Shown piece after piece: positions 7,037 through 64,000 of a DNA stretch of 64,000 nucleotides. How positions within the stretch are numbered: the first letter of the stretch is position 1; every line of letters begins with the position of its first letter. Made by a program: the position numbers and the translations under genes. The notes beneath the pieces were generated by a model. It saw nothing but the letters and a program-made list of their open reading frames with translations, was not told where the DNA came from and made no database searches. Location of the stretch: the NCBI GenBank assembly GCA_050250375.1, contig JBFWOS010000003.1, forward strand, positions 559,286 to 623,285. Direction: 5' to 3'. This DNA is from Candidatus Omnitrophota bacterium (lineage in GTDB: Bacteria; Omnitrophota; Gorgyraeia; Zapsychrales; Zapsychraceae).

Positions 7037-7825
7037 TTAAATCTTGGTCGCCTTGATCTCTTTTCCCAGAAAATTTCTGGCGATCTTGCCGAATTGCTGC
7101 GGTTTATCGGAGACAATAAATTTATATTTGGGCGTCCCTTTTGTTTTAATCATGTTTCTTTCCGTTAATATCAACTTAACCCTTTCCGCGATTTCTTGGG
7201 CCGAATCGACCAGCAACACACCCTTCCCCACTGTATCCTGAATGACTTTTCTTAAAAGCGGATAGTGGGTACACCCTAAAATAAGTGTGTCCACCTTTGC
7301 CTTATTCAAACTGTTGAGATACGTCCGGGCAATGAGTTTCGTTGCCTCCTCATTGAACCATCCCTCCTCGACTAACGGAACAAACAGGGCGCAAGACTGG
7401 GAAACAACCTTCGCCTTGCGGTTAAATTTAAGGATATTCTTGGTGTATTGCCCGCTTTTGATGGTCGCCGATGTGGCAATGACCCCGATACGGTTATTCC
7501 TGGTCAGCCGGGCGGCTTTTTCAGCCCCGGGCCTGATCACACCGAGAATCGGAATCTCATAATTTCTTTTTAGGACCGGAATCGCATAACTCGATGAAGA
7601 GTTGCAGGCCACAACCACCATCTTGACATTCTTTTTGATCAGAATATCGGTATTCTCTTTGGAAAATGTAATGATTGATTCTTTTGATTTCGTTCCATAG
7701 GGTACCCGGGCCGTATCACCGAAGTAGACAATATTTTCGCAGGGCAGATGTTTCATCAACTCTTTAACGACGGTTAATCCACCCAACCCCGAATCAAACA
7801 CACCGATTGCAGAATTTCTGTCCAT
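7037..7825 (-). CDS. murI: Glutamate racemase MurI
   Basis: 262 aa. Motifs IGVFDSGLGGLTV, VVACNSSS and ILGCTHYPLL match glutamate racemase active-site regions. Confidence 0.85.
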   Translation of the reverse strand: MDRNSAIGVFDSGLGGLTVVKELMKHLPCENIVYFGDTARVPYGTKSKESIITFSKENTDILIKKNVKMVVVACNSSSSYAIPVLKRNYEIPILGVIRPGAEKAARLTRNNRIGVIATSATIKSGQYTKNILKFNRKAKVVSQSCALFVPLVEEGWFNEEATKLIARTYLNSLNKAKVDTLILGCTHYPLLRKVIQDTVGKGVLLVDSAQEIAERVKLILTERNMIKTKGTPKYKFIVSDKPQQFGKIARNFLGKEIKATKI

Positions 7826-7833
7826 GGAGCGGT

Positions 7834-39300: not shown

Positions 39301-42300
39301 GAACAACCTCTACGTCAATCGCGTTATAGTTCCGTATATCGGTATATCGTGCAAAGAATTTGGTGATTCGTACAGCGGTATAAATCAATGCTGCGGCAGA
39401 AAGGACACCTGCCAGAACAGCTAACCAGAACCATGCGGTCGTTCCGGAAGCACCCATCAGGAACGGCGTTACGGCCAGGATGACGACAGCGCGCAAAATA
39501 CGGTCACGTCGTAAAGTTTTCGCCGCCGGAGGCGCGCGGGTTTCTTTCGTTGAGACCGTTTGGTTATGTTTCTTTCTGAGACTGAGGACCTGTTTGATCA
39601 ACACAACCGGAATGGTGACAATCACGGCTAACGCCGCCACGGCCAGCCACGGGCTGTGCTCAAATCCCGGTGTAGCGGACAACCCAAGAATCACGGCCAG
39701 GATGACGCTAAACGGTGATGTCATCAGTTTGGTTGACTCCGGCGCCTGCCAATCCCGGCTGGTGATCTTATCTTTGCGACGGATGGACATCAGTTTTTGT
39801 TCAAGGACATCCTGCAATTCTTTGCTTAAAGGTTTATCATCCTTAAGGAGAAGCAAGGTATCGTAAGAAACCTGTCCGATATCCGCATCCCCGATAACCT
39901 CTCCTGTCCCGGCGTGGACGTTGATGCCCAGTTGAGTAAGAACAGAACTCAATACATACAACCAACCAGAGAAGTTAACGGCGGAGATTTCAAGCAGTGT
40001 CCCTTCTTTGCCCTTGTATGTGGCCCCGGATAATTCGATCTTTGTCAGGATGTCCGTTTGCGGGACATTAAATGAGAGTTCAATATTCGCCTGACGTTCT
40101 TTAGTTTGTGTGGCGGTTTCACCCTCGGTGGCTGTTTCTCGTTTTTCTTGCAGGATATCTTCCGGCCGTACTTCTTCATTAATCATGCGTTCGATATCGC
40201 GTTTCATATCGGCCAATAAATCTTCCCAGGCCGTGCTGATGCCGGTGCGGTGTTCAACAAAGAAGTGGTCGATGACCAGACCGGAAGGTCCAAGTCCGAC
40301 TTTGTAGTTACGGCGGGCGAATCCATACGCCAGCAGCACGACAGAAATCTTGTTTAAAATACCCGGCCGGTCTTCATCCATCGGGTCAAACCGGATGAGG
40401 ATCTCTTCCGTCTTGCCTCTGACCGGCGAAGCACTGGACGGATTACTGACTGAAATGTTGATGCGGTCGTCGTGAGAACGGTCTTGCATGACCAAACGTC
40501 TGTCCTCTTCTACTTGTCTGGCCTGTGAGGCGCTCAGCGTTTGCACAACGTAATTCCTGTCACCGATGCGTTTCAGGTCAACATCGAAGACCGGATAGTA
40601 ATCTTTCAGACGCTGCGCGATACCCTGAGGCTGCAGAACGCTCATCTCGATCATGGTAAAGACCGTCAGCAGGGCCAGGCGGATCGGATCGTTTCCTATG
40701 ACTTCCTTGAAGAATTCGGCCATATCCGCCGGATTATCACCCTTACGGATGCGGGCGATCAATGCTTTTTGGTTTTCGATCAACCAGACGATCAGCCGTG
40801 TTTCGCGGCTGAACGGCAGCATGCCCATTCTGGCCAAAACGAAATACAATCGTCCGGAGTGGAACATTCCGTCAATACCGGCCACGATGTGGACCGGAAG
40901 GAACCGGCTCAGGCCGTTGATAATCCATTCCGGTGTGTGACCGTTGGTGTGCATCAACAGGGCCAGGCGCAAAGCCCGTCTCAGGTTATGACGGGTCAGA
41001 TAATCAATGCTTGGTTCCAGTTTGGCCTGCATGTCCGCAAAGACGGCCTGATCCATATCGTGGACCATTCTCGGTTCATGGAACATCAGCGCCTCACCGC
41101 GGACAAACGTTGCGACCGTGTAATGGTCTAACGTCAGATGATGCGGCGGATCAAGGTGACGGCGGTACATCAGTTCTCCGAAACCAAAAACAATCTTGGA
41201 CAGGATATTGTTGTTGGCCTTGTCCGCAAAATATCTTAATCTCCAGACGCCGGCGGTCAACGGCGCGTTGACTTTCATGTATTGGTGGACGAATCTGAAC
41301 CGCAGCAGCATCCATGTCCACCATCCGGCGGTTTCCATTTCGCGTTCGATTCGGTCGAAGATCCCGCCTCTTAACGCGGTCGGATAATTAACGGCAACGT
41401 TGGTCAATAAGTCGAACAATCGCGGCAGATAACTGCGGCGTTTCGGCTGTTGATAATCAATCGCCAGCGCGCGTTGGTTGTCGCGGTGCTGGAATCCGTC
41501 TTCCAGCATGAGATATGTTCCGGTTCTTCTGACAACCACAATGTCGTCCGGAAGGCTGGTGTCGATGGTTTCCGGTACGACCCTCAATTCATCGGCGCCT
41601 GACAGGATGAGCCTCAACCGTCTGAACGCGAACGTAAACAAGCGGTCTTGCGCCCTTCTTAAATCTTTCAGGAATTCCGGAATGATCTCTGCCGGTGTCC
41701 CGGTATAGCCCAGTTGGGCGGCGATCAGGGCGTATTGGTCAACCCTGACCCTGGTGCGGTTGGATTTGATGTTCATTTGCCCGACGACCGCGCGGACTTT
41801 CAGCAGCAGGATGTACGCGCGCCGGGCTTTTTCCAACAGGTCGCGGTCAAACACACCTTTATTCAACAGATAATTCCAAACCGCTGCATCCGGGATGAAT
41901 TCTTCAGAAGCCAAAGCATTGGTATCGGTGTGTTCGGCGATGAAGCCCGCCAATCCGATTGAATAGATTGTCTGCAGGTCTCTTAATGAACCGTTGCCTT
42001 CCTTCAGGTTAGGCTCTTTGGTATTCAAGCCTTCGCGGAAACCGTTCTTTTGGTATCGGATCTGCCATTCCAGACGTTTAAGCTTGGCAAAAACCAGCGG
42101 ATCAACATTGTAAGCCTGTTTCAGTCCGGCGAAGACTTCCATTCTCCAGCCGTTCCAGATTGAACGATCTCCGGCCACATAACGGGTCTCAAGGATAGAA
42201 CTCGCGATCTGGACCTGGGCGAGGTTTTCCGATTCCCAGCGGATGGTTGAAGCGTTCGGAACAAATTCAACCTGTTCATTGAATACTTCCGTAACCACCA

Positions 42301-45300
42301 TGCGGACGAACCGAAGTAATTTCAACTGGCGTTCAAATTCGGCCAATACGGCTTGTTTGTCCGCATCGGATTCATCGACAAACCGTTTGATCGCTTTAAA
42401 TTGATAATCAAAGTCATAAATGGCTTCGACCTTTTCCCGTTCCCCGGCCGGAACGAACTGCATGACTTTATCATGATTTTCTTCATACCCTTTCACTTCG
42501 ATTCTCAAGTCGAGGTCTGAACCCGGGACATATTCACGGCGGGCATAACTTCCGTGGGCCATGAAGGTCACATCCCCGTCATCGCCGAATCGTTCAACCG
42601 TATAACGGTTCAATTGAATGACGATATGGTCCAGCCGGCGGGTGGTCAGGTCAGTCTTAACCTGGATCGGCAGCCGCGCGTGGTCAACCCAGATATAGTT
42701 AAATTCATATTCCCATTGTTTCTTTAAAATCTGTGCTGTTTGTTTGATCGCCTCATTGTCATCGCCGATTGCACTTAAACGAATATCGAGCGTGGTTTTG
42801 ATTCTTTCCAACCGTTCGTTCAAACGCTCTTCCAATTCTTTGACCTGCGCGGCAACTTCTTCTTCGGTGAGATTAGACTGTTCGGATTCTTCGTCTTTCT
42901 TTTTACGGAACATGAACGGCCATAACATGGCGAGTACATACGGATTGTTGGTGGTGGAAGACATGACCGTTGACGGATCCGCGCCCATCAGATAAATGGT
43001 GACGATGGCCGCTAAGACAAACGCCATGATGATAAAACTGATAAAGCCGTTTTGTTTCAGCATTTTTGCCAACTTTTTAATGCGTGAATTTTGTTTTTTG
43101 TTGCTGCCTGCAAAGAAGTATTCATCCGTATCGATCTTTGCCTTGAGGTCGTTGTGTTCCTGTTTGGCCAGGTGGGCGATCACTAAACGGTAAATGATGA
43201 ACGACTGGATCAGATCATTCTTATCAAAGAAGTTTGTATTCAGAACGATTGTGTTTCGGTCAAAGTCGATGGCGAATAAATGTCCGTTTGAATAGATCGA
43301 TGAATCCGTCAAAATAAAGGTGATTTCGCGAGGCAGATCAAATTCCGGCGGTCCGCGCGTCATCAGATCCCCGATGACATCGTTGATTTTCGCCAGGAGG
43401 ATCTCTTCGCGTTGGCTGGCCGGTTCTGATGATGTTTTTTCGTAACGGTTTTCAACCAGCCTGACTTTAAATTCGACGCTCAGGTCTGCGACCACTTGAT
43501 CCATGGTTACGTCATCGGTTTTATGACCTTCTTCACCCTTAACGCCTCTCAGCCATTGTTTGACAAAGTCGAAGAACGATGTGAATACAATCACATTATG
43601 GTTGGCCTTTTCAATAATCTTGAATTCGAATCCAAACTTGTCCGCAAAGGCTTTATTTGTTTCAACAGGCGTGACCATGTCTTGCTGGCCGACAGTGACC
43701 AGGACTTTAATACCGTTTTGCCCGATATTTTCCGCCAAGGCAATTGATTCATCCGCGTCAATTTCCAGATGGCGGTATAACCACAATGTCTCAAATCGCT
43801 GACGGAAGCTGCGTTCAGCCACGTTGGCGTGTTCGATCAGTTTATTGTATAGGTATGAATTAACTCTTAGGAATTGGACCACTTTTCTGAATCCGAGTTC
43901 CCTGAAGAAGGCCTGCATACGGACCAGGGCTTTATTCGGCAGGATGTGAAGCATCATGACCCCCCATAAAATCGGACGGAACATGGAAATTTGTCTGTAC
44001 GGCAGTGACGCGAACACAACACTGTTGATATGGCTGATCGCATCGGAAAGAATGTTCTTGAACCGGAATGACTGCAGCGTGTAGCGGTTGGTCAAAAGCG
44101 CCAGCAGGATCCGTCCGCCGAACGAATGGGCCACGATATCCATTTTATGTGTCCTGACTGAACCGGTTGTTTCATAAACATTTAAATTCACTTGTTTAAG
44201 CAGGGATTTGATCTGCCGTTTCAGCCAGGAAGATTCCTCTTCTTCAACGATTTCAAATCCGTTTTGGGCAAAATGGTTGATGACCCAGGCCAGGAATACT
44301 GTTGACCGGGCGACAATGTGGTCAATCTCAAGAATATTTCTCAGGACAACTTTTTCCTGGATGGTTAATTCCTGACCGCCGATGCTTCCGGTTTCCAGCA
44401 GTCCGCGGATAATCTTGTCGGATCTCCAGTGCTGGATAATGACGATAGTGCGCTGCGGATACAGCCTCTTCAATTCTTCCATGTTAAACGTGAGCGTATC
44501 AACGACACCATGAAGGAACAGGATCGGGCTGCCGCCGGCCTTATGGACCTGGAAGGCGTACGGCACATCGATGGTGTTGTCTGAATATGAATTGTATTGT
44601 TCTTCCTGGGTTGGCACATCTTCCACATAAGTATCCGTATGATGCCGTCCGTTACCATTGCGTCTCAGTCGGGATAAGCGTGAACCGTTACCTTTATAAG
44701 CCTCGATGACTTTTGTCAGGGCTGCCCTGGCGCCGGCCGGTCCGTGTTCCGGCAAGACAATAACGTCTTGCGGCATGCCGGCGTAAATCTTCGGTCCGAC
44801 CATAACGCGGGTGGCTTTCGGCAGGGCCGCGAACATCGGATGATCCAGTTCGCTGTCTCCGATAACCAGAATGTCTTCTTCATTAATTCGAAGATGATCC
44901 AGCAGATCGCGTACCGCGCGTCCTTTATCGGCCCGGGATACGTGCAGAGCGACGGATGACACCAGAACGTTCAGGCTGCTGAACCTTTCGTCAGCGGCCA
45001 GACGGCGACGGATGCTATCGGCCAAATGTGTGCGGAATTCAACTGTTGTATTTTCCAGCCACAACTTCAGATCAAGGGTCTGTCCTTCGAACATGACACG
45101 GTCCAGAGGCATATCATCCGGCAGAGTTCTGAGCCGCTGTCTGGCCAGATTATATTCGTAGCCGATAATGCCCATAACTTCTTCGATTTCATCATCGGTA
45201 GAAGCCAGGATATCCAGATAAATCGGAATATCGTAATCGATCTGGCCTTGACGGTTGAACCGGTAACCAATTCCGCCGTTGGCGGTATACATATATTGCA

Positions 45301-48300
45301 GGGCCATGGCTTCGGTCGTCAATCGGTCGCTGAACCTGGCTTTGGCGCGGGTGATTGTTTTGCCGGTTACCGCGGCCACCTGAACGCCAAATTGACGAAG
45401 CTGTTCGACGATTTGCACCGATTCATTGTCAAACGCGGTCTGATCATCTTCCGCGTTTCCGTGAAGCAGGGAATCATCCAGGTCGGTAATGACCAGCTTG
45501 AATTTCTTCTTCAGGCGGCGGTCGATTTCGTCGGAAGCGGCCTTCGCTTTTTGGTACTTGGATAATTCAGCGCTGTAAAGCTGTCGCAACGTTTGTTCAA
45601 TGGCTTGTGCGTAATCCACGGATACCAGATAACGTAAGGTCGCCACGGAACGGATGATCTTGCCGTCAATGTTGGCCATAACGTTCACTTCGTATTCATC
45701 TGCGACATCAACCAGTCCGCCGATATCGATCAACACAACTTTATCATCAATGATGCCGTGATTAACGAATGAAGGATCCTGGTTAATATAACCGTATCTC
45801 CTCAGCTCTTCCTGCAGGGTGATCCATTTTTGGACAAATGTGTCGATTTCGTCAAACCGTTTTTCCTTGGCCAGCAACTGTAATTTTCGGGCAAGCGTCA
45901 TTTCAACTTGTTGTTCCGCGGTCGAAACAGTGACCTTCCACGGCCAGCCGCGGACCCGAATGGTCTGCTGTCTGAACTCGTATTCAGCCGGGATAATACC
46001 TGTATCAGCCAGATTATTTTCTATGGTCCGTTCCCGTTCAAAAATCTTGTAGGCGTCTTTTTCTTCCCGGTCGATCACTTTGGCCAGGCGTGGGATTAAT
46101 CTCAGGACTCTTGTTGGGGTGACGATCAGGATCATAAACGCGACCGCCCGAATGATTCTTCTCGCCACTTGTCTGACCTTCATGGATAACGAATCCGGAC
46201 TGAATGTGTTAGCATCCACAATAATCCTGTCGTCTGACAAGAGCATTCCCCTTAATCGGAAAATGACCCATTCGGTTAAGCGGATGGCGAGCTGTTCATT
46301 GAATGACCGGAATCGTTTGATGACATACGTGCCGTTGCCGTAAACCACTTTTTCCCAGCCGGCGCCGATTCGTTTCAACGGTTTTTTCTTGAGTTCTTCA
46401 ACATCTTCTTCCGGCAAGAAGATCAGCCCTGAGGCGGCTAATGTAAGTTCTCCTGAACCATTGTTTAACAATTGGTCGGCCAGCCCGGCCAGACCCAGGA
46501 TGATCATGGCCTTCGGCGTTCCGCGCAACTTGGCGATCAGGCTTACGATAAATAAATATATTCTTAAGTACGCCGGTGGTGCCCGTAATTGAACGACTGC
46601 GTCTCTTTCGCGGACATACTGAACTTCGTTCGCCGGCCCGTAGAGCATGAAGATTGCATCCATGCCGGTGTACCTTCCGTTTTCAATCACGCCGACATTC
46701 CACTTGACGGCCCCGTTGTGTTCATGGAATCCCTGGGCTGAGGCAGGACTATAGGTGGCCAGGTATTGTATGCCTTCCCGTTCGGTTTGGTCGCGTTGAG
46801 CGAGGACTAACCCTTTGGCCAGTCCTTTGACCGGTTTTCCGTTGATCAAATAATAATCTTTTCTTTCTTTCGAGACTGTCCTGGCATCCGGCGCCCCGAG
46901 GGCAAAATTGAACCGCGCGTTAGCCGGCACATCAACGCTTCCACTCAAGGTGAACTTATTGGTCAGGCGATTGACGGATTTGAACATGCCGGAACGGATT
47001 TTCTTTGTCTGGATATGTTTGATCATGCGCGGTGATAAATATTTATCCACACTCCAGATCAACGCGCCGATAAAGTTTCGTTTTGTTTCCTTATCGATAA
47101 TTTGGGCAACAACGATGCCCTTGTTGTTATTTCTGATTGCGCTGCGTAATTGTTTCATCGTGACGGTTTCTTGCGGGGTAGTCATCCACGCGTCGTTGTG
47201 AACCTGGGTTAACTCCGCAGCTTCCGCGGTATAAGCCCAGCGATAAATCACATAGGCATCTTCACGTTCGTCAATATTGAAGAAAATCAATTCTTTGGCC
47301 GGGATGCGTCTGGCATCGCCGAATTTTTGTTCGACAAACCGCTCTAACGCAACCGGGATCACATTTCGGCGGACATAAAGCATCGGCATTTCAGTTCCGG
47401 TCTTGAGATGTTCGACCCGGGCTCTGTTGTATTGCTGGATGACTTTATCCCATGATCCCTTAATAACCTTACGGTCGACAAACATTTTCGCCAGCAGTCC
47501 GGCCAGCGCACCGCCGATAAGCGTTATGAACAATTCAATGCCGTCAAAACTGTCTCTGGCCGTTTCGGTGACACCGGATATTTCTTGAGCTTGAGCTTCG
47601 CCACCCATAAATCCGAAGGCTGTCAATGCCGCCGCGGATATACCCACGATGAACAACAGAGTGGACAACGTGGTAAACCCGCCTTCTCCCCGGTCTTTCT
47701 TCGGCCCGTCGCGCGGTTGCTGCGGTTCATGCTGATCGGTGGCCGGGGCTTCGGCGTCTTTCCTGACCGCGTTGCCCTGATCGGTCACGCTTCCTGGATT
47801 GAGTTCTTCCTGGAGCCGGATGTACAAATGCAGATATTCATTGATACTGCGGGTCCAGTCGTTATTGATTGACATTCCGTTTTCAATTAACGTTCTCCAG
47901 ATAGACGGTGCAAACTTATATGTTCCCCAGGCGCGTTCGATCGCATGGTGTAATTGATTTTTATTTTCCCCTCGGGCGATCTCATTGCCTTCTCTGTCGA
48001 GCATCCTTGACAGCCCCTTGAACACAAACCCGTTTGGTTTTGATCCGCCTTCAAACACGGTATCCGCCAGGCCGCCGGTCAGACGGACGATCGGGATCAC
48101 TCCATAACGCAAGGCGAGCATTTGAGTCAGGCCGCTCGGTTCATAATCAGACGGAACAAGCAGGACATCGGCGGCTGAATAAATATGCTGGGCGATCTCG
48201 TCCACAAATCCCTGCAGATAAACGATGGATATATTAATATTTTTCTTGCGGGCGTCTTCGGCCAGCTGGGCAAACCGTTGTTCCAATTTTGAATCGCCTG

Positions 48301-51300
48301 AACCGCCGACGATAATATCGATATCCAGCGCTTTCATCCGGCCGGCGTACATATCATCCACCATATCGGCCAGGATATCGAGCTGCTTTTGTTCAACAAG
48401 GCGGGACACGACGCCCACCAGCAGACGATCGCTGCCAGGAGTCAGGTACCCGTGTTTGGTTACTTTATCTTTCGTGACTTCCTTCACGTCACGGCCTTCC
48501 GCGAGCATTTCCTGAAGATGCTGTTTGTTTTGTGCGCGGGCTTCAAGGACGGCATCAATACCCTGCTCGATGGAATAATTCTTGAAGAACACTTTGTTGG
48601 TTGACGGATCATTCAATCTGAAGTGAATACCGTTTAATATACCCTTGAACCGTTCGCCTAATGTCTTGAGCAATGTCAACCCGCTGAATAATGTGTCGAT
48701 GACTTCTTTCAGATAACCGCGGCTGACCGTATTCACGGCATTACCCAGGGCGCTGATCTTAGTGAATGTTTGCGGGACAATACCCATCATATTGATCCGG
48801 CTTCTGTGGACGACAAGCTCCCTGACGGCCGGAAACTCTTCTAATCCGAGTTCAGGATACAAGGCCTGCGGATAAGATCCCTGGTAACCGATGTTGTGGA
48901 TCGTAAACAGATTTCCGGTGCGTTCAAAATGTTCTTTATGGATCGTACGCATGTAGAGCGACACCAGGGCTGTATGGTGATCATGGGTGTGGACAATCGC
49001 CGGTTTCAACCCGATATGTTTCATTAACTCCAAAGAGCCCCGGGATAACAGGATTGATTCATAGAAGCCGGTGCGTTCGGTCTTATAGGCTGAATCAAAG
49101 AATTCCGTCGAGTCGGCATCCAGCATGTAGACCGTGATGCCTTCAACGGTCAATTTCTTAGCCGTCAGGACGACATTTTCGTTTTCCTTGAATGGTACTT
49201 CAAAGGCGAAACCTTCGACGTCTTCGGCCCCGGCATAAGCCGGATTTACGGCCAGTTGTTTGAAGTAAGGAATGATGACCACCAGATCGTGTCCGATTTC
49301 GGCCAGGGCTTTAGGCAGTTCGTACATAACATCTCCCTGTCCGCCCTTCTTGACCAGCGGCCCGAATTCCATGGCGACCAGAGCAACTGTGCCTTTGAAG
49401 TTTTGTTGAATGGTCACACGGCCGTTTCCGTAACTGACGTCTGCCCATTCGCGTGAACCGTCTTCGTTTTCAAGGACAAACGTGTATTCGAAATTACGTT
49501 CGACGATTACCTTAACGGTGTAGTGGGCGCGGGACTCGGTGTTTTCAATAAAGGTCACCGGATGGGTATAATCTTTCCATTCTCCGTCCATATTGGAATG
49601 AAGGATAACACGGCGGGTTCCCGTTTCATCTCTGCGGTTAGCGGCAACTTCCAGTGTAACTTCTTGCCCCACTTCAACCGTCCTGAAGGCATTCACAATC
49701 TGACCTCCGGTGGTTGACCTTAAGGCCGCGATGAATTCACGTGTCCCGCGGTACATGACAACACCCAGCGGCGGAACAGTAATTTCGATGGAGTCGGCAC
49801 GGCCGTTTGAGGCGACCGGCTGTGTATTGTGTTTGTCTCTGTCAACGACATCGCTGCCGCCGTACTTGACTGAATCACTGTTAAAGACCGGTTCCCAAAG
49901 GCCGGCAAACGGCACACCTACGCGGTAATCCTGATAAACAACCGGTGTAAAGTTGGCGACAACCAGAACGACTTCATTCGGGTTTTCACTCCTGCGGATA
50001 AAGCTGAGAACCCCGCGTTCCGCGTCGTCAAAGTTGATGGCTTCGAACCCTTCCCGGCTAAAATCAAAACGGTGCAGGTTGCGGTCGTTCTTGTAAAGCC
50101 GGTTGAGGTCGCGGACCAGGGTTTGAATGCCCTGGTGCAGCGGATACTCAAGCAGATGCCATTCGAGGTCACGGTCCGGATTCCATTCCGCGGTCTGGGC
50201 CAAATCAGCGCCCATAAACAATAACTTCTTGCCAGGTGTGGCGAACATCAGCGCGTACAACAGTCTCAAGTTGGCAAAACGCTGCCATTCATCGCCCGGC
50301 ATCTTGCCGATCAGCGAACCTTTACCATGGACGACTTCGTCATGGGCCAGGGCCAGCATGAACCGTTCCGTAAATGCGTACATGCTGTAGAACGTGATGT
50401 CGTTATGGTGGAATCGTCGGTGGATCGGTTGACGGCTGAAATACTTGAGCGTATCATTCATCCAGCCCATGGCCCACTTAATGTCAAATCCAAGGGCCTT
50501 ATCACCGGACTCTATCGGCGCGGTTACACCCGGCCAATCAGTTGATTCTTCGGCGATGGTTATGATTTCCGGATATACCTGATGAGCGGTGGTGTTGAGT
50601 TGACGGATGAATCGTACCGCCTCAAGGTTTTCATTTCCGCCGTAAATGTTCGGAATCCATTGTCCTGGTTGCCGGCCGTAATTCAGATACAGCATGGATG
50701 ATACGGCATCCACGCGGATACCATCGATGTGATATTCACGCATCCAGTACATGGCGTTGCTCAACAGGAAGCTGATCACTTCGTGACGGCCGTAATTAAA
50801 GATCAACGTACCCCAATCCGGATGGTCGCTTTGGATCGGCAATTCATGAGAATAGAGTTCTGTACCGTCGAAGCGGACCAGTCCGTGCAGGTCGCGCGGG
50901 AAGTGGGCCGGGACCCAGTCGAAGAAGACACCGAAGCCGGCCTGATGCAGCTGATCGATCAAATACTTCAGATCTTCCGGCGTCCCGTATCGTGATGTCG
51001 GCGAGAAGTAATTGCTGACTTGGTAACCCCAGGACGGATAATAACTGTGCTCATAAGGAGGCAAGAACTGGACGTGGGTAAATTCCGTTTCTTGTAAATG
51101 CTTGATCAGTTCAGGAGCGAGTTCGCGATAGGTTAACGGGGCCCTTTCGCCTTCTTCTGTCGTCTTGTTCCTGAACGACCCTAAATGGAGTTCAAAAACG
51201 CTGATCGGAGCTGAACTGGCGTTTGACTGAGCCCTTCGTTCCATCCACTTGCGGTCATGCCATCGGTATTTACCTGTATCCGAGACGATGGATGATGTCC

Positions 51301-54300
51301 GGTCCGCATTGTCGCCGGTCGGGAATTCGCTTGCGAAGGCATACGGATCGGCCTTGATCCTGACCACTTTGTCCCGCCCGATAATGCGGAATTTGTAAAG
51401 GGCGCCTTCGGTGACCCGCGGCACATATATCGACCAGACGCCGGTTGATGGATCAAATCTCATGCGGCCGCCTCTGTGCTTCCAGCCGTTGAAATCACCG
51501 ATGACAGAAACGGAGCGCGCATTCGGCGCCCAGACGGCGAAGTAGGTCCCGTAGACGGTATGTTCCGTCTTGACCAGGTGAGCGCCGAGCTTATCATAAA
51601 TCTGGCTATGCGCGCCTTGCTGAACGAATAACAGTTTATCGAGGTCTCCGAACTGCAGGCCTTGCATAATCTTTAGAACGCGGGCTGATTCTTCATCCAG
51701 CTGAATGTGACCTTGTTCGACGGCCGCAGATATTTCGCTGACGGCTTCCGGACGGCTGGCGTACGTCAGAAGGCTGTCCTGAATATAATTATTCAGATAA
51801 TGTTCTTCACGGGCGCTGTTTTGTTCATGCGTCAGATCAAATTCAGCCAGGGCGCCGACTTCATGGATCAAACTGGCCGCCATCTGATTGACGGTCAGGT
51901 ATCCGAGTTCTTCATATTCCGCCGCGTTGGACAGGACGATGTATTCCTCACCGTCATAAACGTAAACAGCAGCGAGGATTCCCGTCACCGGACCGGCGCG
52001 AAGGAGTCCGGCACGGGCCATGGTTCTCAGGCGCTGGGCCATGGCTTTATAACCGTTTGCGCGCAGGTATCGATGGGCGGCGATTACGGCCGGATGATTG
52101 ATGGCCACCATTTCCAGCCGTTTGATATCTTTATCTCGTGATTGTTCAGTGGCGGTTTTAAGGAATGCGAACGCCTCTGGTGTCAACGCTTCAGCCGTTA
52201 CTCTCCATGTCCAGTTGTTTTCAACCGTACCGGGTTTATTCATCCGGGCTTCTTCATCCAGGCCGAGAATATCTTGTAACGGAACGATGGCGAGACGTGA
52301 TTTTGAATCGACAGCCATCTGGACAAAACGTTCATGAATATCTTCTTCTATATTTTCTTCCGCGAGATGTTCCGTTATTTCACGTTTCTGTTCAGCAGTA
52401 GCTTCGCGGGTATACCAGCCTACGGTGGTATTATTATCATGAGTACCGGTGTAGACCACAGAATTTTCAACGTGATTGTCCGGATGGTAACGATGATCTC
52501 CTTCAAACCCGAACTGAAGAACGTTCATGCCTGACAATTCAAATTGTTTAAGCAGGACCGTCACGTCCTCTGTAATAATCCCCAGGTCTTCAGCGATGAA
52601 CGGCAGCGATGGGAATTGTTCGCTCAGATGGCTGAAAAAGTCGGCGCCCGGCCCAGGCACCCATTCGCCAGCCAGGGCGTTTTCGGCCTTGGCCGGGATG
52701 GACCAGTAGCCGGCAAATCCGCGGAAATGATCCAGGCGGACCAGGTCGAAATAATTCAACTGCTGCTGCAGACGCATGGTCCACCAGTCGTAGTTATTTT
52801 CCTTGAGCGCATCCCAAAGGTAAACCGGGTTGCCCCAAACCTGGCCAGTGGCACTGAAGGCATCTGCCGGCGCGCCGGCGACATGAAGCGGCTGGTTGTC
52901 TTTGCCCAGATCGAAATATTCTCGGTGGGCCCAGACATCGGCGCTGTCATGGCTGACATAGATCGGCGCGTCTCCGATAAACCGGACGCCTTTCTCAGCG
53001 GCGTACGCTTTCAAGGCCCGGAATTGTTTGTAGAGCATAAACTGCACAAACATAATCTCTTCAACAGCGGCCTTATGTTGTTCCCGGTAATTGGCCAGGA
53101 TCGTTTCGTTTCTGTCTCTTAATGAATCGGTCCATTCATACCAGGCTTGCCCGTTGTTATTTTCTTTCAGGACCATGAACAACGCGTAATCTTGTAACCA
53201 ATAATTATTGTTGAACATAAAGAGTTCAAATTCACTGTTGCCGTTCTTGGCCTTGAAGCGTTCATAGGCCAGTTTGAGCAGGCCTCCCTTGAAGGCAGCA
53301 ACGGTGTTGTAATCGACCTTGGTTTCATCCGTTGTTTCAAAGGCGGCCGCTTCTTCGGCGGTCAGCAATCCTTCGGCGACCAATTTCTCGATGCTGATCA
53401 TCAGAGGATTCAAGGCGAAGGCTGAATCGCTCAGGTACGGTGAATTTAATGTTGAAACCGCGGTCGGCGTCAACGGCAGCATCTGCCAGTAACGCTGCTT
53501 GGCTCCGGCGAGAAGATCGACAAACGCGTAAGCAGCCGGTCCGAAATCACCGATGCCGTGGCGTGAAGGCAATGAGGTTACGGACAGCAGGACCCCGCTT
53601 TCTCTCGGCTGGATGATCCGTTCGACTTCGAAACGGACTGATTGTTGATCCGGCATTTCTTCTCCCGACACCGGCCGCGCAGGATCTTTGGCGGCGACGG
53701 TTTCGAATGTTCTGACCAGATATTCGAACGGACGAAGCGTGATTGTTTCTTGAGCGGTAAACGCGCTTTGCTGGCCGTTCTCAACATTGGTCCACACGCC
53801 CTGGGCATTACTTTGGCCAGAATTCCACTCTTCCGCCCAGAGGTGAAGGGTGAATTGACGGGTTTCACCGGAATAGTTGGCGATGACCAGCGCCTGTTCC
53901 TGGGCGAGGCTGCGTTGATAGGCGATCACGCCCTTCGGCAAGTCTCCGGTATGAACCGCATTTGTGTCACCTTTGCGCCATAACGCTGATTTCGTTTTAT
54001 TTAACCAGGTATCATAAAATTCCTTCTGTTCTTGATCATACGGCTCGGCTTCATGGTTTTGGGTAACATAGGTTGCGTTCGGTTTTTCGTTTGAACGGCC
54101 GCGGCGCTGGCCGGCGTTGATCATCACCATACCCGGCATGGTCATCATCAGGACAGCGGCTGCTCTTTGTTGTTCACGGTTCAATATCCTGGCGACGCGC
54201 TCGGACGGATCATCATGGTTTTCCAAGAAATGGACGGTGCGCGTTAAATATTCATTTGATGTGCGTTGCCGGTTGGTCAGGTAATCTCTTAATTCTTCAA

Positions 54301-57300
54301 CCGGGAAACGCTGTTCGACCAGGATGTCGAACACATGTTTGTCGTAGGTAAAATGAATGCCCAATCGCTGCAATGCCCCTTCGTGCTGGGCATAACCTTC
54401 GCCGATCAGGATGGCGTTGTTGTATGCACCTAAGAATTCATGCAGGAATCCAGGGATAAATTCTTCTGTTAGGATCTCATTTCCGCCTAACGGTTGTAAA
54501 TCACGGTTGATATGTTCTTTTAACAGCAGATGCGCCATATCGATTCTGGCACCGCCGCCGTTGGTGATATCCAGGATGTATTGCATTTTCGCGGCCATCT
54601 GGGCTCTTAATGCCGGGTTCGACCAGTCTAACTGGGCGGTATCGATCCATGAACCGGAGAACCCTTCTTGTCCGTGCAGAATGGCTTTCGGCCCATTTGC
54701 TGTTTGGACCATAAAGTAACGATTCGTGTATTTCTTGACATCTTCGCGGTTCTTCAAATATTCACTCAGGGTCGTGACCGGTTCATTCAATTGAGCCGCG
54801 TCGCGTGAAATGAACCATTCCGGATGGGCGATGGTCCATGGTGAATCGGCGGCCATGTGGTTCGGAACAAAGTCGACGACCACTTTCAGGCCGGCGGCGT
54901 TGGCGCGTTTGACAAATTTGCGGAACGATCTCTCCGTACCAAATTCTTCGTCGATCGTGTAATCTTTAATGCTGTACGCTGACCCGACCCGTTTTGGATC
55001 CCACATCTTGTTGAAGTCTGTTGTAAATTGTCCTCTCTTCCAGATACCCATCATCCAGATCACATTAAATCCGTCGGCTCTCATCGTTCTGAGGGTTTTA
55101 TTGTCAATTTCATCGAACCGGCGGCCTTTTTCGCGGGTATGCCATAAGAATAAATGGGCGCCTTGTGTTCTGATTTCTTCATCGAGATCAGACCCTGGTT
55201 GCGTAGCGGCCGGGAATTCCCCGCTAACCTTTCGTTCAGCCAGTTCAAAAATTCTGCGGTTATAGTCTGCGTGGACTTTGGCCGCCGCGATAATCGCCTC
55301 TTCCTTGGCCAGCCAGGCGATTTGCGCATAATCCATATCCGGCAATTGCCGTCTCAATGTTTCCATCGCCCGTTGCAGTGTCTGCGCATAAACCTTATCG
55401 ATATCAACAGCCAGCTGGAATAAGATCATTTGTTGTTCGACAGATGGTACAACCCACTTTCTCAGGCTCGGCACATAAACCCGTTTGTGTTTGGCCACAA
55501 ACAAGTTTGGCGGTGTGCGTTTGAAATGAACGGTGCGTTCCGCTTCTTCATCGATCGGGGCGACATTGATCGCGTGGAATTTAACGGCGGTGTAATCGGC
55601 ATTGACCAATCCCGCGCTGTAGATGACAGATGGTGGTGCGTTGATCTGGTTGAGTTTACCGGATGCGGTCTGATCAACGATCACGTAGAGATTATGTTGA
55701 CGCTGCAATCCTGAGGCCGGCACCTTCGGCGTCACATCACCTTCAAGCGCGGCGGCCATAATACCAGCCTTCTTCTCGCCGTTGGCCATGAAGAATGTGT
55801 TGCGGGCTTCAAAGATATCGGCCAAGCCCATGGTATAGGCGTATGGAACCCGTCGGATGTCTGCGTAGTCACTGATGTTGGAATCAATCGTGCTTTGGGT
55901 CAAGCGGATTTGTCTTATTCTTGAGCTGAATTTATTATCGGCTGAAGGTTCATTGAAGGCCAAATGTCCGTTAGCACCGATGCCTAACATCACGATGTCC
56001 GCTCCGCCCATCTGTCTCAACGTTTGCGTATATCGTCTCAGATAAACCGGAAGAATGAAGGCTGTGTAGACCGGGCTTAAGATGTATTTGGTCACAATAT
56101 ACGGGATAGATTTATATTGGTACGGATCATATTTCACATAATCTGCGACCAGATGGATATTTTCTTGCGGGATCGCGACTCTGGAGAACAGGTTCTCGTT
56201 CAAGAAATAAGCGAATGACGCTTGGTGATCCCTGGTGAGACCTCTGTATTCATCCAGATGGAACGCGTTGATGCGTGACCATTCAATTCCTTCTATCCTG
56301 GCCAGTTCGTGCAGGAATTGTTTCATCGTGTTGCCGGTGGCAAAGATAATATTGATCGTTTCTTTAACCTTTAATAATTCTTTTATCTTGGCCGCGACTT
56401 GTCCGGCGGCGCCAGGGGCGAATTGGTCAGGAGCGTACACACTTACGTTATTCGTCTTCGCGGTTTGTTCTCCGGCCATTTGTTCTTTATCCGCATGGCG
56501 AACGGCTTTGAATGCGGCTTTGGCCAGCCAGACAAACGGACCGACGAAACCGATGAAGACCAGATACCATTTATTTCTTCTTAATTGGGCATCTTTAATG
56601 AAGAACCCTTTCTTGTTCACGGCCGATGAGTAGAAGATGTTGAAGAATTGAGTAGAAATACCGTCCAAAGCCACTGCAACCGCAGATAACGCTGGATGTT
56701 GAATCATTAAGCCGCGCAGGATCGAATAGAAGCGGGTCATCCAGAACGCTTCAAATTGTTTTTCGTGGGCCTTAAGCGCTTCTTCTCTTAATTGTTCAAC
56801 ATTGCCACGGATCAGTTCAACCAGCTTGCTATAACCAAACGATCTTAAGCGAACCATCGCCCCAATGCCGACAATCTTCAGGGCAGAGATGAAGGCTGTT
56901 TCTAAATCAGCTGGCTGGTCACCAAACAGACCCGGCATCACTTGGCCGGCCGCCCAGACAATGATAGTAATAGCCAAAGTACCAAGTGCGACGAAACGGG
57001 TTGTCATAAAGAAATTCCTGATTTTGAATGTCTTGAAGAAATTGACCGTGCGGGCTTCCACCATACTTCCAACGACATAGGTCAGGCCGAGGAAGGCGCT
57101 GATCGACAAGATCAGATATCCGAGCATCACACCTTTTGGCGCGATCACGGTGAAGTAGGCCAAACTCAAGAGGCCCATCGCGAGGCCTAACGGGAAGGCG
57201 AGCACGACTTGTTTCTTGATGATGCCGTGGCCACTGATCCACTGTCCGGTGAGGTCGGTGGCGGCCATAAAGATACCGAAGACGATGATATTGGCCACCG

Positions 57301-60300
57301 GAACGGCCACCACGCTGGTCAACAACGCGAACAGATATCCGTAGGTCAACAAGGCCAGGCCGGAGATCGCCGCCACGCTGATCAACGCCTTCACCAGGAC
57401 GCCGTTTCTCGGACGGGAAACTGGCCGTTCGTTCGTTGTTTTACGGACCGGCTCATCCGGCATCATGGCCAGCGGGGCCAATCCGTTCTCAATGACACCG
57501 GCGCGGCCGATGAACAGCGGTTCGATGAACCTGAATGAATCGGCCGGAACGATTTTGTTAACAGCCAGATGCTCCAGGAACAGCGCGGCGTTGAATACAT
57601 GCATGGTCGGTTCGCCGCTTAGATTGGATACTTGGTCGGCCGGGATCGCTTCGCGCATCTTCTCGATTTCCTGATCGGTATCGATAAATATGCGATGGCG
57701 CCGTCCGCGGGCGATCTCATAGGTGATCCAGGCCGGATCAGCCACGGCGCTGTAAACCTTAGGCTGTTTCAGGCCGTTCAATTCTTCTTTCTTAAGGATC
57801 AGGTAAGCGATATCAAATGAATAACGTAATAATTTTTGTTTGTCTTCGTTGCTAAAGCTTGACTTCAACACGTTTTGTTCGACCCTCTTGTTCAACCGTT
57901 TTAATTCTTTACGGTTAAGATCTCTGTCTTCCTTGATGAAGCTCAAAATTTGAGCCGGAACAACCCAGGCAAATCCGACTTCCGGAACAAAATTCCATTT
58001 AAACGCGGTCTTGACCGGAAGTTTGTAGGCAAAATGGTAGAACAACAGGATCGGTGAACGGATCAACCCGACCACAAACGATGAAACAAGATATGAAATA
58101 ACTGCGGCTGCCGCTGTAAAGAAGATGTTTCCGCCGGATAAGCTGAAATAGACGTAAGCCGTTGATGTTGAAACGCCCAGGATCTTGACCGTTTCGGTCA
58201 CGACTTTTGAGGCCAACAATGTATAGAACATGGCCCAGTAGCCGTTGATTTGTTTTTGGGTCAGACGGCCGCTCGCCAGGGCGCGGTGTGAAGCGAATAT
58301 CAGCAGTTTACGCAGGCTGTTGACTTTTACGGTCACGGACTTCTGGGCTGCCCGGCTGCCGGCGCGGGCCATCAGGAACATACCCCATACGGCCAGGAAC
58401 AGGACGAATTCAGCGATCCCCTGTCCGAATTTGTTTAAGGTGGAGGCAACGCCGCGAACTTCAGTTTCCGATTCCCCAATCGTTTTAACTTTAGTTTCAT
58501 GTGTTAATGAACGGGCGCTGCCTCCAACAGGTTGTATTTCTGAAATTATTTCTTGAGAGTCTACAGGGGTGATGCCGACAACTTCGGTTTCCGATTCCCC
58601 AATCGTTTTAACTTTAGTTTCATTTGTTAATGAACGGGCATCACCCCTGTTAGATTTTGTGGAGACAGCACCTTCAACTTTTGCTCCCGATTCCCCAATC
58701 GTAACTTTAGTTTCTGTTAATGAACGGGTGCTGTCTCCAATATGTTGTGTTCCTGTTTGAACTTCTGGTGAAATTACAGGGGTGATGCCGGCATCTTCAG
58801 TTTTCGATTCCCCAATCGTTTTAACTTTAGTTTCATTTGTTAATGAACGGGCATCACCCCTGTTAGATTTTGCGGAGACAGCACCCTGGTCTTCAGTTTC
58901 CGATTCCCCAATCGTAACTTTAGTTTCTGTGAACGAACGACGGGCGCTGTCTCCGACATGAGCTGCATCTCCTTGGAGATACATATCGGTCAATATTCTT
59001 AATTGGTCTGATGTTAATTGCGGATAGTTTGGTTCAATGTCGGCCTGAGGATTGACGCTGAGTCTTTCGGCCGTGAGAGCTTTTTGTCTGTCCTGGGCGG
59101 CGATTTGTGCGTTGATTTGTTCTGACACATCGCGGCCTTCTTCTTCCAGGCGGATCATATCGACGAAGAATGGAATCATGATGACTGGGTCATAGGCTTC
59201 CCAGCTGCCGTTGTTTTCACCGGTACGGCTGTATCTGAATCCGACATGGATATGGTCTTCAATCGGCCGGCCGTTTAAGCGGTCTGCGGCATTACCGGTG
59301 ACGCCTGAATGACCAACGACTTGGCCGAGTTCGACCTGTTCTTGCTGTTTGACATCGGATTTTGTTAAATGACTGAACTCGACGCGGATCCAGATACCGG
59401 CGACTTTGCGGTCAACAAAGACGACCAGCCCGTCTCTGCTTGTCTCGACTTTAAGGATTTGACCTTCCCAAGGCGTTCTGACCGGGGTATTGCGCGGCGT
59501 CAAGAAATCAACCCCACGATGATAATCGCTGTTTAATCTGAACGCGCCGAAATAATTGTACGGACGGATCAACCGTTTGATGACATCTTCAGGTTTTTCC
59601 ACCGCTTGAACGTCGGTTGCATCCATATTCGCCTGCTCAACGGTGTTAACTTGACCGACGGCCCGAAGGGAAAGAACGAGCAGAACGATAAACAACACGG
59701 CCGCGAGTATCACAGAGACCAGGCGTCTTGTCGGTGTTCCGGCTTTTCGGGCTGTTTGTTCCGCGGCGAACAGTTCAGTGACGGTGCGGTCAATCGGACG
59801 GTTATAGTCAAGCGCGCCAAGATTGATCACGATAAACAGTGTTTGATATTTTTTACCCTGATGTTCTTCGTCAATCGTAATGAATCGGTAAGCGTCCCGG
59901 CCTTCTTTGGCTAAAAGATCAAGCACTCTGGTCTGGAATTCCATGCCGCGGGAAGACACATTTCGATTAATGACGGTGTCGATCCCTTTGTTAAACAACC
60001 ACTGCAGCGTTATGCGGTAGGCTTCAACGGAATATTGTTCACGGATCAATTTTGATGAGCTGGTGGAAACGACGGCCGGTTTGCTCTTGCCCCTGAAGAA
60101 CACCCCGATATTCAAGTCGCCGGTTGTCTGGTTTTCACGATCACGTAAATCAAGCAGGATATGTGTCTCTTCCCGTGAGGTGCCGCGGACGTTGAGTCGG
60201 GCGATCTTGCCATCGAGGACGGTTCCGGCGAACATTTCTTCATAAACGGTGTCGGATTTTTGCTGATCGGTCAGGTCTAGATCGACCAATACGACCAGGC

Positions 60301-63300
60301 CGGTCAGTTCGTTCAGATAATTTTCAGAAACTTCAATACCGAACGTTCTGAATGCGTTTAATAATTCTGTCAGTTCTTTTTGGTTGGCGGCTGAAGTGAA
60401 ATAAGAAATACTTGTATTGTTCCGGACCGTCTCCTCATCCTTACCGAATTGTTGATGGCCAAACTCATGACGGAAGACATCCGCCAGCAATGTAATAAAT
60501 TCTTCAGTTGATTTTTTGCCGGCTGTGAATGGCGGCGCGCGTGCGAGGAAGGCGCGGTTGACCATCACGATACCGGCTGTTTCACTATATTCAGCCAGCC
60601 GCTGGGCCAGATCGGTAATTTCTACATGAGCAGCCTGAGCCAGCTTTCCGATCTTTCTTAAGGCTTCAGCCACGTACAATTGTTGATCGATTTCATCCGC
60701 AGTCCGGCCGGACGGGGTATGGCCGCGTAATTCAGCCGGATAATTATGAGATGGACGGTTTGTCATCGGATGGGTCAATATCCATTCCGCCATCAGCCGG
60801 CGGTATAAGGCGGCCGGGTTATCCGCCGCCTTCCTGCGGATTTCCGCGGCGGTCAGCCTGACCGCGTTCAAGACCCCGCGCTGATCGATCAGGCCCCGGA
60901 CATGTTCCAGGTTTTGCGCTGCCGGCAAGCCGAGGATATTCCATCCTTGCAAGAAGTTGCTGACAATCCCGCGGTGCCCGTACGGCGTCGCTTTCAGGTG
61001 GAATTGTTTGGCCGCGTAAGTCACGTCCAGCGAAAGAATTTCCTGTGTTTCCAGTTCGCCCAACCGGGCCATCTGGGCGGCCATATGTTCGATGGTGACG
61101 TACAGCCATTGGGCTTCCTTCGATAACGGGCCGTTGGTCAATTGATGGGACAACTGCCGGACCAGGCCGTTGAGCAGCTTGAAATTCATGGACGGCCATA
61201 TGACCGTACCATGATAGTTGTCTTCAAAGACTTCGTACAGGTCGGCTTCTTTCAGACCGTTACGGTTTTCCGCCGCCAGCGGAGCTTTGACCACACGTTC
61301 CGCAGCCGATACCGGTATGACGTTGGCCAAGACCGGCCCAAAGGTGGTGGCGTTGCCGCCCAAAGCCACCGGGGTCAAGATCACCCTCAGTCCCTGGCGG
61401 ATCTGCTCGAGCGTGTACCCTTCGGCGGTGGTCGTGCCGAAAGTCAGTTCGTCCGTATCCGGCAGGGTGATCTTTTGTCCACTGCGGTCCAAAGCGATAG
61501 CGACATATTCCAGCGTTTCATCGGCCAAAGCCTGATCCAGGAACCGTGACACGCCGGCCAGGAACCGTTCGACGCTGTTATTTTCGACGCGGATATTGGA
61601 ACCAATAATCTTTTGCGCGTCGGTGATCAGGGCTTTTACATACGACAGGTCGCCCATGCTTTGTTCGATTTCCCAGGCCATCCAGGCAAGAATATTCGTT
61701 TTCAATTGTTCTTTGGTACGGGTCACCTTAAACGGCTGGTCGGCCCCGTTCCAGACACCGATCAGCGTATCAAAGTCCACACCGACAAACACTTCAAACA
61801 CGCCGGCTTCCTGAAGACGGCGGATCGCCTTCAGGGCCATCGGCATTAACAGGATATTGATCAGGGCCGCATAGGCGCCGAACCCGAGAGAATTATCCGC
61901 GTCTCTCCATGTCATGCGCGGATCGTTGTCCCTGGCGCCGACCATCGTGCGGTATGTCAACGGCTGGGTGATGCCGCCGGCGATGGCATAAACATGACGG
62001 GAAACGTCTCTGAGAATTTCGCCGACCGTTCTGATTTCTTTTTGATGTCTTAGGAAGACCGGTTCGTTGTGGTCGAGAAGTTTATATCGCAACAACGTTT
62101 CGGCCAGGCTCAACAGCAGCAGTTCCGTATCCACCCGGTTGGCTTTAAACCGTTTCTCCGCGTGCGTCTTGCTGGCGAAACGGATATCGGTTTCGTGGGT
62201 CAACTGCCCTTCCCGGACCAGACCCAGCAGATGGATGAATTGCGAGCGCAGGACTTCCGGACGGACATAGCCGATCAATTCCCGCAGGATGATGACAGTA
62301 TCGCCGCCGAACGGCGTCAGATAATACGGTGAACCGGCCAGAATGGCGGCGTTCTTGGTGATCAGGTATTGACCGGTGTACAGTTGCATCATGAAGCGGT
62401 CATATCGGGCCGTACCGCGTAATTGTTCGGCGGCCTTAAGCACATCAGCAGTATAAAGTTCTTCCAGCGTGTAATGTTCCAGCGGCGTGTGGTTGCTGGC
62501 GATGTCCACCGTGAAGCGCACGGCCCGGCCGTCCGCTGGCCGGCTGATCACCAGACCGTTATTTTCGTTAACGGTGACGGTGGTGCCGGCGTTGAAGGCG
62601 ACCGTCAGGACATAATAGTGGGAGTCACCGTTGCCGTTGTCTTTGGCCGGCTGCAGGGCTCGCAGGACCACCCCTTGAGGCTGACGGATGATCTGCCATC
62701 CGCCGACCTTGATATCATGGCCGTTGCCGACATTTTCCTGAATATCGCGGTTGGCTTCCGGGTCATCCCCGGTGCGGCGGTTATAATTTCTGATTGAACG
62801 GCCGCTGCCGAACAGCATGTTGTCCAGAACCAGATCGCCTTGTGTTTCGACGGTCATGGTGTATCTCACCCCGCTGAATCCTTGCTGGCCGGCGCCGAAC
62901 GGTTGCCCCGGCTCGACGCTCATATAACGGATCGCCGGCACAGACGCTTTACCGTTGATCACCTGACTCATCTCGAAGGTAACCTTGGTGTTTCCGGTTG
63001 CCCGGGAAATATCGATGGCAGTGGTGTCGGCCAGATTGGTCCGCACCAGGTGGCTGAACAGGTTGCGGCCGGTGTCACGGGCCACCACATTCAGAATACC
63101 GCCCTGTTCTTTGACGACGACGGTATCTTGTTCATGATCGATGATGATACCGGCAACAGCTTTCGCGGACGCCAGACGGTTCAACGCCTGCATGTACTCC
63201 GTCTGAACGGTTACGCCGAATTTTCGATAAGCCTTCAGCAACTCGGCCAGTTCCCGACGGTTGACGGTTGATTGGAAGTACAGGATGCTGGTGTTCGCCT

Positions 63301-63976: not shown

Positions 63977-64000
63977 GGCTTCCCCTTCCTGGACGATTCT

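Follow-up and report, generated by a model that had tools for sequence, protein, structure and literature searches.

The giant open reading frame

We analysed a 64,000-nucleotide stretch (the window) of contig JBFWOS010000003.1 from a Candidatus Omnitrophota bacterium (assembly GCA_050250375.1, positions 559,286 to 623,285), and in particular the peptidase domains encoded near its right edge within a giant open reading frame (ORF) on the minus strand. Giant bacterial genes of 10,000 to 150,000 codons have been catalogued only recently. The ORF runs uninterrupted over 21362..63976 and encodes 14,204 amino acids (aa), residue i starting at nucleotide (nt) 63976-3(i-1). The features considered here are as follows.

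21362..64000, minus strand: giant ORF of at least 14,204 aa, a polytopic membrane protein with fused glycogen/alpha-glucan enzymes, open at the window edge
63653..64000, minus strand: tail of an upstream domain (aa 1-108 and the 8 preceding codons), 55% identical to residues 469-584 of P0007, a fragmentary relative
63134..63646, minus strand: HEFGH module 1 (aa 111-281), a predicted minigluzincin-like zincin, from duplication, alignment, structural model and Foldseek
60767..63019, minus strand: domain (aa ~320-1070) distantly akin to archaeal-type glycogen debranching enzyme / amylo-alpha-1,6-glucosidase, from a family profile
60257..60769, minus strand: HEFGH module 2 (aa 1070-1240), paralogue of module 1 by alignment, with a weak Reprolysin_3 match (E=0.1)
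59723..60256, minus strand: ~180 aa (aa 1241-1418) without detectable relatives in searches, with a K/R-rich end before the next feature
59666..59722, minus strand: transmembrane (TM) helix (aa 1419-1437), predicted N-in/C-out from hydropathy and charge
59228..59524, minus strand: peptidase M23 domain (aa 1485-1583; Pfam PF01551) with H1486, D1490, H1536, H1575 and H1577
58427..58963, minus strand: five tandem ~22-aa motifs, G(D)SARSLTxETKV(K)TIGESETE (aa ~1672-1850), completing the predicted loop that holds the M23 domain
58361..58417, minus strand: next hydrophobic helix (aa 1854-1872), which closes the M23 loop and is the first of a ~9-helix cluster ending at aa 2489

A sequence-only reading of the locus had placed the peptidases at the N-terminus of the protein, and this placement is probably wrong. 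The frame stays open through the 8 codons that separate the listed TTG start (63976) from the window end (64000). Furthermore, P0007 aligns from its residue 469 with the window translation from the first codon (nt 64000) at 55% identity, an alignment that takes in the 8 codons ahead of the listed start, and P0007 carries a Glucosamine_iso-like domain further upstream. With an open frame up to the window edge and homology to P0007 across the start, this region is probably internal: the gene, probably longer than 14,204 codons, would begin outside the window. A Shine-Dalgarno-like purine run precedes an ATG at 63973, where an internal start may lie. In aa 1-108 a sub-threshold Biotin_carb_N match was the sole signal, and a PDB search gave no support to the idea that these residues are the end of an alpha/beta hydrolase.

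Pfam recognised at least 12 distinct families in the ORF, GT5, GT1 and HAD included, and ~30 hydrophobic helices occur in clusters. The enzymes comprise a 6-phosphogluconolactonase/glucosamine-6-phosphate isomerase-like domain, an alpha-amylase, a GH77 4-alpha-glucanotransferase (MalQ; 563 bits), a CBM48 with an amylase C-terminal domain (branching-enzyme-like), a GT5+GT1 starch synthase (GlgA), a HAD domain, an alpha/beta hydrolase, a GlnD-like nucleotidyltransferase and a pyridoxal-phosphate enzyme. A near-full glycogen/alpha-glucan toolkit thus stands in one chain at window positions ~34900-56400 (minus strand, aa 2516-9861), its blocks split by TM-helix clusters at aa 5440-5500, 6978, 8084-8202, 8953-9184 and 9927-10202. 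No SecA_DEAD, dockerin or C39 domain was detected in the ORF with Pfam (for SecA at E<=0.01, in each third of the ORF).

The whole ORF contains only 2 cysteines in 14,204 aa (0.014%), at aa 12902 and 12908, compared with 53 in 5,873 aa (0.90%) for 14 neighbouring ORFs. The codons TGT and TGC occur 438 and 490 times in the two off-frames, but only twice in frame. The long relatives that share the debranching-like domain are equally poor in cysteine. Both cysteines of the ORF lie in its C-terminal ~2,300 aa (aa 11865-14135; ~21400-28400, minus strand), an array of diverged internal repeats without Pfam coverage whose pairwise identities are 32-53% over 90-890 aa (E down to 1e-103).

The duplicated HEFGH modules

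We found exactly two HExxH motifs in the ORF, both reading HEFGH, at aa 211 (nt 63332-63346) and aa 1170 (nt 60455-60469); composition shuffles of the ORF contained 0.44 on average. The motifs lie in paralogous segments, aa 111-268 and aa 1070-1227, which align over 158 aa without gaps at 51% identity (E=2e-46), confirming that the HEFGH segments are duplicated, as had been suggested from the sequence. At the DNA level the two copies are 57% identical, with proportions of differing synonymous (pS) and nonsynonymous (pN) sites of 0.79 and 0.32, respectively. The saturation of the synonymous sites, set against the lower pN, indicates that the duplication is old and that both copies have been kept under purifying selection. 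The duplication does not extend beyond the 158-aa module, as the sequences that follow were no more alike than shuffled controls. With a module profile, no further copy was detected, either in the ORF or in the remaining frames of the window. The landmarks of module 1 are an NYPARL strand (aa 119-124), RAPP (aa 187-190), H211-E212-F-G-H215 and E222 (nt 63311-63313). Those of module 2 are NYPAEL (aa 1078-1083), H1170-E1171-F-G-H1174 and a candidate third zinc ligand, E1181 (nt 60434-60436).

The module had no match in Pfam, NCBIfam, PHROGs or PDB sequences, the last searched also by profile, and the best sequence signal at a relaxed threshold was the Reprolysin_3 match of module 2 (E=0.1). An exhaustive phmmer search of 1.84 billion cluster representatives with aa 1-1200 as the query returned 132 matches in all. 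Just three other proteins among these representatives hold the module, with which a local profile search agreed:

P0010: 362-aa contig fragment; motif HEFGH; the module follows ACT domains
P0054: 1,523 aa, Hainich groundwater; motif HEFTH; no domain context identified
P0119: 2,124-aa fragment; motif HEYRGH; followed by HD/RelA-SpoT and GT5 starch-synthase domains

The relatives come from the metagenome-assembled genomes GCA_019912205.1 and GCA_041653955.1 and from Hainich groundwater, P0007 and P0010 sharing the first of these genomes. Word-indexed homologue searches with the two-module and five-module alignments gave no matches, and scans of a genome and metagenome collection with protein patterns and with the exact DNA of the window end found no related loci. 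In the five-module alignment RAPP, one Phe and the H/E/H residues are invariant, and a Y-P-A/G-x-L island lies within an otherwise variable N-terminal flank. An exact HExxH is present in four of the five modules, P0119 having one extra residue between the Glu and the second His. An acidic residue about 7 positions past the second His is kept in all five (E222 and E1181 here).

To see how the module might fold, we examined an AlphaFold2 model built from the five-sequence alignment, which reached a mean predicted local distance difference test score (pLDDT) of 82.5 and a predicted template modelling score (pTM) of 0.80. The model opens with a short strand at the N-terminus, one helix and three strands; then come a long helix (residues 96-118), which contains HEFGH at residues 111-115, a helix that begins at E122 (E222 of the ORF) and finally two further helices. 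The best Foldseek matches were selecase, jannalysin, abylysin, BlaR1 and M48 peptidases (probability 0.8-1.0), and BepA, HtpX and IrrE/PprI were further structural neighbours. The model therefore agrees with the zincin fold for which a structural check had been proposed. Together, these data predict that the HEFGH module is a metallopeptidase domain of the minimal gluzincin type ('minigluzincin-like') and represents an undescribed sequence family. A check for a third zinc ligand downstream of each HExxH had also been proposed. The conserved acidic residue at about +7 answers to it in five of five modules, and as a ligand it is a candidate: in the model it would be the Glu at H+7 (E222/E1181), placed at the start of the next helix. 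Most gluzincins have Glu as the third ligand. In minigluzincins, Lopez-Pelegrin and colleagues are said to have reported in 2013, it is a His at the corresponding helix start.

Compared with the known minigluzincins (selecase MJ1213, projannalysin and proabylysin; 4qhf, 4jix and 4jiu), the module shows 13-18% identity and no match at the sequence level. Those proteins are free-standing archaeal proteins of ~100 aa, whereas the module is longer (~160 aa), adding a strand at its N-terminus and helices at its C-terminus, carries a Glu at the spot of their reported His ligand, and is embedded twice in a protein of >14,000 aa. It differs likewise from the M48/M56 zincins (HtpX, BepA, ZMPSTE24, BlaR1), in which the catalytic domain is flanked or interrupted by TM helices, as both HEFGH modules are soluble and lie hundreds of residues from the nearest helix. 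What is new is a predicted zincin sequence family, and its embedding in duplicate in a giant metabolic membrane protein.

Other long proteins with the debranching-like domain carry a single HExxH (P0005 at aa 1430, P0031 at aa 764, P0051 at aa 3273 and P0008 at aa 2044), in a similar 'strand - loop - helix' context. When we compared profiles of these regions with that of the HEFGH module, the E values were 0.005-0.02 at low probability, which is weakly suggestive. Long proteins of this kind may more generally contain small zincin modules. That these sites in P0005, P0031 and the others are diverged copies of the module was not established, given the weak pairwise profile scores.

A feature absent from the sequence-only reading is that the HEFGH modules bracket a ~750-aa debranching-enzyme-like domain. 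Most of the 132 phmmer matches fall on it (aa ~320-1070), and its family has more than 120 representatives in proteins of ~650-850 aa. We found no Pfam or NCBIfam model for this family, and neither the window domain nor 39 members had any Pfam match, GDE_C included. A profile of 39 family sequences, however, matched the archaeal-type glycogen debranching enzyme in PDB 7vma over two stretches (E=1.4e-6). The 'LAGSWRFLTYFGRDT' motif and another motif of the barrel carry this match; the window domain reads FGGD where the usual barrel motif is FGRD. The presence of such a domain between the modules fits the glycogen-enzyme content of the ORF.

The M23 domain and the predicted membrane topology

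Downstream of the second module, the TM helix and the M23 domain stand in the order that had been described from the sequence. The helix (aa 1419-1437, LVSVILAAVLFIVLLVLSL) has a mean Kyte-Doolittle hydropathy of 3.23, the highest in the ORF. The M23 domain scores 42.9 bits against PF01551 (gathering score 28.7) and covers profile positions 2-90 of 96. HRGVD (aa 1486-1490) aligns with HYGVD of lysostaphin and with the equivalent motif in 2hsi, 6smk and 5kqb, H1536 (in EFSHL) aligns with the 'MHL' catalytic His of lysostaphin, and HIH (aa 1575-1577) lies inside the Pfam match after an insertion of ~8 residues. All five catalytic and zinc residues are therefore present, as expected of the canonical M23 domain that had been proposed. 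PDB and NCBIfam matches were to M23 enzymes only (2hsi, 6smk, lysostaphin, LytM, ShyA, MepM and DipM; best PDB E=6e-9), and a word-indexed homologue search with the TM helix and M23 region gave no matches. Judged by the predicted fold of the modules and the alignments of the M23 domain, neither of the two outcomes named in advance as fatal to the peptidase assignments, an HExxH in a non-peptidase context lacking a third ligand or an M23 domain lacking the catalytic His/Asp geometry, was encountered.

Like other members of the MepM/ShyA type, the M23 domain follows a single membrane helix and has the HxxxD motif, the middle His and HxH. It is unlike typical members in that it occupies an internal loop of a giant polytopic protein and not a protein of 300-450 aa, contains the ~8-residue insertion, lacks LysM or coiled-coil partner domains and is only weakly similar to characterised members. 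By its sequence, it is an ordinary family member in an unusual host protein.

The charges around the helix suggest its orientation. The 15 residues before it contain 4 K/R and 1 D/E, and the 15 residues after it contain 1 K/R and 2 D/E, followed by an acidic stretch. Ten helices are found between aa 1419 and aa 2489, and their charge biases mostly fit an alternation that would bring the chain back to the cytoplasmic side ahead of the glycogen enzymes, whose substrates are nucleotide sugars and cytoplasmic glucans. By this crude positive-inside and helix count, the HEFGH modules, the debranching-like domain and the glycogen enzymes past aa 2490 would be cytoplasmic, and the M23 domain together with the repeat motifs (aa 1438-1853) would form a periplasmic loop of ~415 aa.

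Beyond the five tandem copies that complete the loop, the ~22-aa motif occurs at aa 8399, 9114, 9199, 9966 and 10032, giving 10 copies in the ORF. It always lies within ~60 residues of a hydrophobic helix, the tandem five ending just before the helix at aa 1854. Among the 132 relatives it was found elsewhere only in P0007, directly after a hydrophobic stretch. The motif might serve as a membrane-proximal tether, or the chain might be cut there.

The neighbouring genes encode MutS, MutL, RsmB, a secretin, an AmiC-type amidase, MurI, QueC/E/F, RNase PH and RdgB. These housekeeping neighbours indicate that the locus belongs to a diderm bacterial chromosome and not to a phage or plasmid; a 'polyvalent protein' of such an element was ruled out by the MutS, MutL, queuosine, MurI, amidase and secretin genes and by the null PHROGs search. 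The genes for MurI (glutamate racemase), Amidase_3 (AmiC-type) and the secretin adjoin on the same strand at 7037-10426 (minus strand). Their presence points to a diderm with its own peptidoglycan machinery, which forms the background for the M23 loop. At 440-3538 (plus strand) lies an ORF of 1,032 aa with no cysteine, whose match is limited to the first ~280 positions of the DUF748 model.

Possible roles of the two peptidase types

Domain identities, domain order, conservation of the catalytic residues and the age of the duplication are well supported by the comparisons above. With regard to function, self-processing of a polyprotein or remodelling of peptidoglycan or protein had been proposed for all the peptidases together. 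One shared role is unlikely, as the positive-inside bias puts the HEFGH and M23 domains on opposite sides of the membrane. Because the HEFGH modules are predicted to be cytoplasmic and the M23 domain periplasmic, the two types probably have different jobs, and we would assign peptidoglycan remodelling to the M23 domain only and self-processing to the HEFGH modules only. The best explanation as a whole, to which we give a rough probability of 0.45, is that the M23 domain is a tethered wall peptidase and that the HEFGH modules cut the giant chain in cis.

According to this explanation, the M23 domain would act like the membrane-tethered endopeptidases of the MepM, ShyA and LytM type, cutting or gripping the peptide bridges of peptidoglycan beside the giant protein in the inner membrane, or would at least be a wall anchor there. 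Each HEFGH module would bind zinc through HExxH and the Glu seven residues on, and would serve as a built-in cytoplasmic protease that cuts the giant chain at or near the module boundaries. Cleavage, for which the candidate site is the conserved NYPAxL strand immediately preceding each module, would free or activate the bracketed enzyme domain. Three observations favour action in cis. The module family is known only inside long multi-domain proteins, at junctions of enzyme domains; the two copies bracket one enzyme domain, each with an NYPAxL island just upstream; and, by analogy, the minigluzincin relatives are regulated by their own termini, which occupy the cleft (proabylysin). The more specific version, in which the modules are cis processing proteases of an undescribed zincin family that cut at NYPAxL and release the debranching-like domain and the part upstream of it, is improbable as a complete account.

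Several points weigh against this explanation. Cleavage and its site are putative, and just two modules in >14,000 aa could not process every junction. The module model comes from an alignment of five sequences and is the source of the predicted zinc geometry and of the predicted place of the NYPAxL strand, and the third ligand would be a Glu where that of the minigluzincins is reportedly a His. The altered spacing in P0119 (HEYRGH) means that catalysis may not hold across the family. For the M23 domain, a single-sequence AlphaFold model had a pLDDT of 37, so that its geometry is read from sequence alignment. The topology comes from simple hydropathy and a charge count, and the avoidance of cysteine, more typical of exported proteins, sits uneasily with a mostly cytoplasmic protein.

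The alternative that fares best is that the HEFGH modules are active zinc proteases working in trans, either in quality control like HtpX/M48 or in cleavage of a regulator like ImmA/IrrE, linked to the state of the glycogen enzymes. The structural neighbours BlaR1, M48/BepA, HtpX and IrrE/PprI all cleave separate substrates, and the presence of just two modules in the ORF would also suit this role. We consider it doubtful nevertheless, as the neighbourhood (MutS, MutL and housekeeping genes) offers no partner or substrate candidate and the family is known only within long multi-domain proteins. It is also unlikely that the modules are non-catalytic, serving as pseudo-peptidases in the form of a structural or metal-binding connector that docks enzyme domains. 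The HEYRGH of P0119, the small size of the family and the lack of a sequence-family link to characterised peptidases would agree with such a role, but the two His, the Glu and the downstream acidic residue have been kept in both copies despite saturated synonymous sites, and four of the five modules have an exact HExxH.

For the M23 domain, a reading suggested by proposals for other Omnitrophota giants is that it is an offensive weapon of a predatory or episymbiotic bacterium, with the loop reaching the wall of the prey. The architecture of many helices and many enzymes, with GT5, GT1 and HAD, resembles that of Omnitrophota giants said to degrade cell walls, and the ORF is nearly free of cysteine, as exported proteins often are. 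We hold this to be quite unlikely, since a ~415-aa loop between two inner-membrane helices of a diderm would need to cross the outer membrane and the SecA_DEAD, dockerin and C39 domains were not detected. In degenerate LytM domains such as those of EnvC, NlpD and DipM, the zinc ligands are lost. A peptidoglycan-binding or amidase-activating domain of this LytM type, pinning the giant protein to the wall, is very improbable here because H1486, D1490, H1536, H1575 and H1577 are all intact, although DipM and NlpD-like proteins are among the sequence matches, the ~8-residue insertion precedes HxH and an AmiC-type amidase gene lies in the window.

The preferred explanation, a wall-tethered M23 domain and modules that cut in cis, can be set beside what has been published on related proteins. 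Multi-enzyme giants with many helices and GT5, GT1 and HAD domains have been described in Omnitrophota (10.1101/2023.11.21.568195; 10.64898/2026.06.07.730766). Like these 'Archaeovorins' and the 'multi-enzyme metabolic cluster', the present ORF combines >10,000 aa, many TM helices, diverse enzymes and embedded peptidases; unlike them as published, where the peptidases are C39 and S8, it carries a minigluzincin-like zincin and an M23 domain. West-Roberts et al. found a divergent SecA_DEAD domain in most full-length giants. The ORF fits the descriptive class, but we do not file it as an Archaeovorin because it has no detectable SecA_DEAD. Whether giant proteins are cleaved is an open question in 10.1101/2023.11.21.568195, which proposes C39 and S8 domains for autoprocessing; the terms 'cleav' and 'polyprotein' are not used in 10.64898/2026.06.07.730766, and M23, HExxH, metallopeptidase and cysteine are mentioned in neither work. 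Both preprints leave undecided whether giant gene products function as single chains or as fragments, and C39 and S8 are the only peptidase domains so far suggested for self-processing. In 10.64898/2026.06.07.730766 the authors propose a 'TM-only, cytoplasmic-face' reading for multi-enzyme giants, with which the cytoplasmic enzymes and modules of our crude topology agree. As an analogy only, the arrangement recalls viral polyprotein proteases, in which a protease sits between functional domains of one chain and would act in cis. Those proteases, mostly chymotrypsin-like or papain-like, have an unrelated fold, and the protein studied here, in which cleavage in cis would be presumed by that analogy, is encoded on a cellular chromosome.

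If the modules are inactive or are ordinary trans proteases, the finding shrinks to an unusual domain arrangement. Even so, the locus presents an M23 wall peptidase that would be carried on an internal loop of a giant protein of the inner membrane with a near-complete glycogen toolkit, and the modules would extend the minimal zincin fold by a very rare sequence family that Pfam does not cover. A fragment of ~1,100 aa, consisting of module, enzyme domain and module, is a small and tractable test case for the self-cutting of giant proteins. If cutting in cis is true, the ORF would be a chromosomal bacterial 'metabolic polyprotein' matured by its own metalloproteases, which would answer the question of whether such a protein works whole or in pieces.

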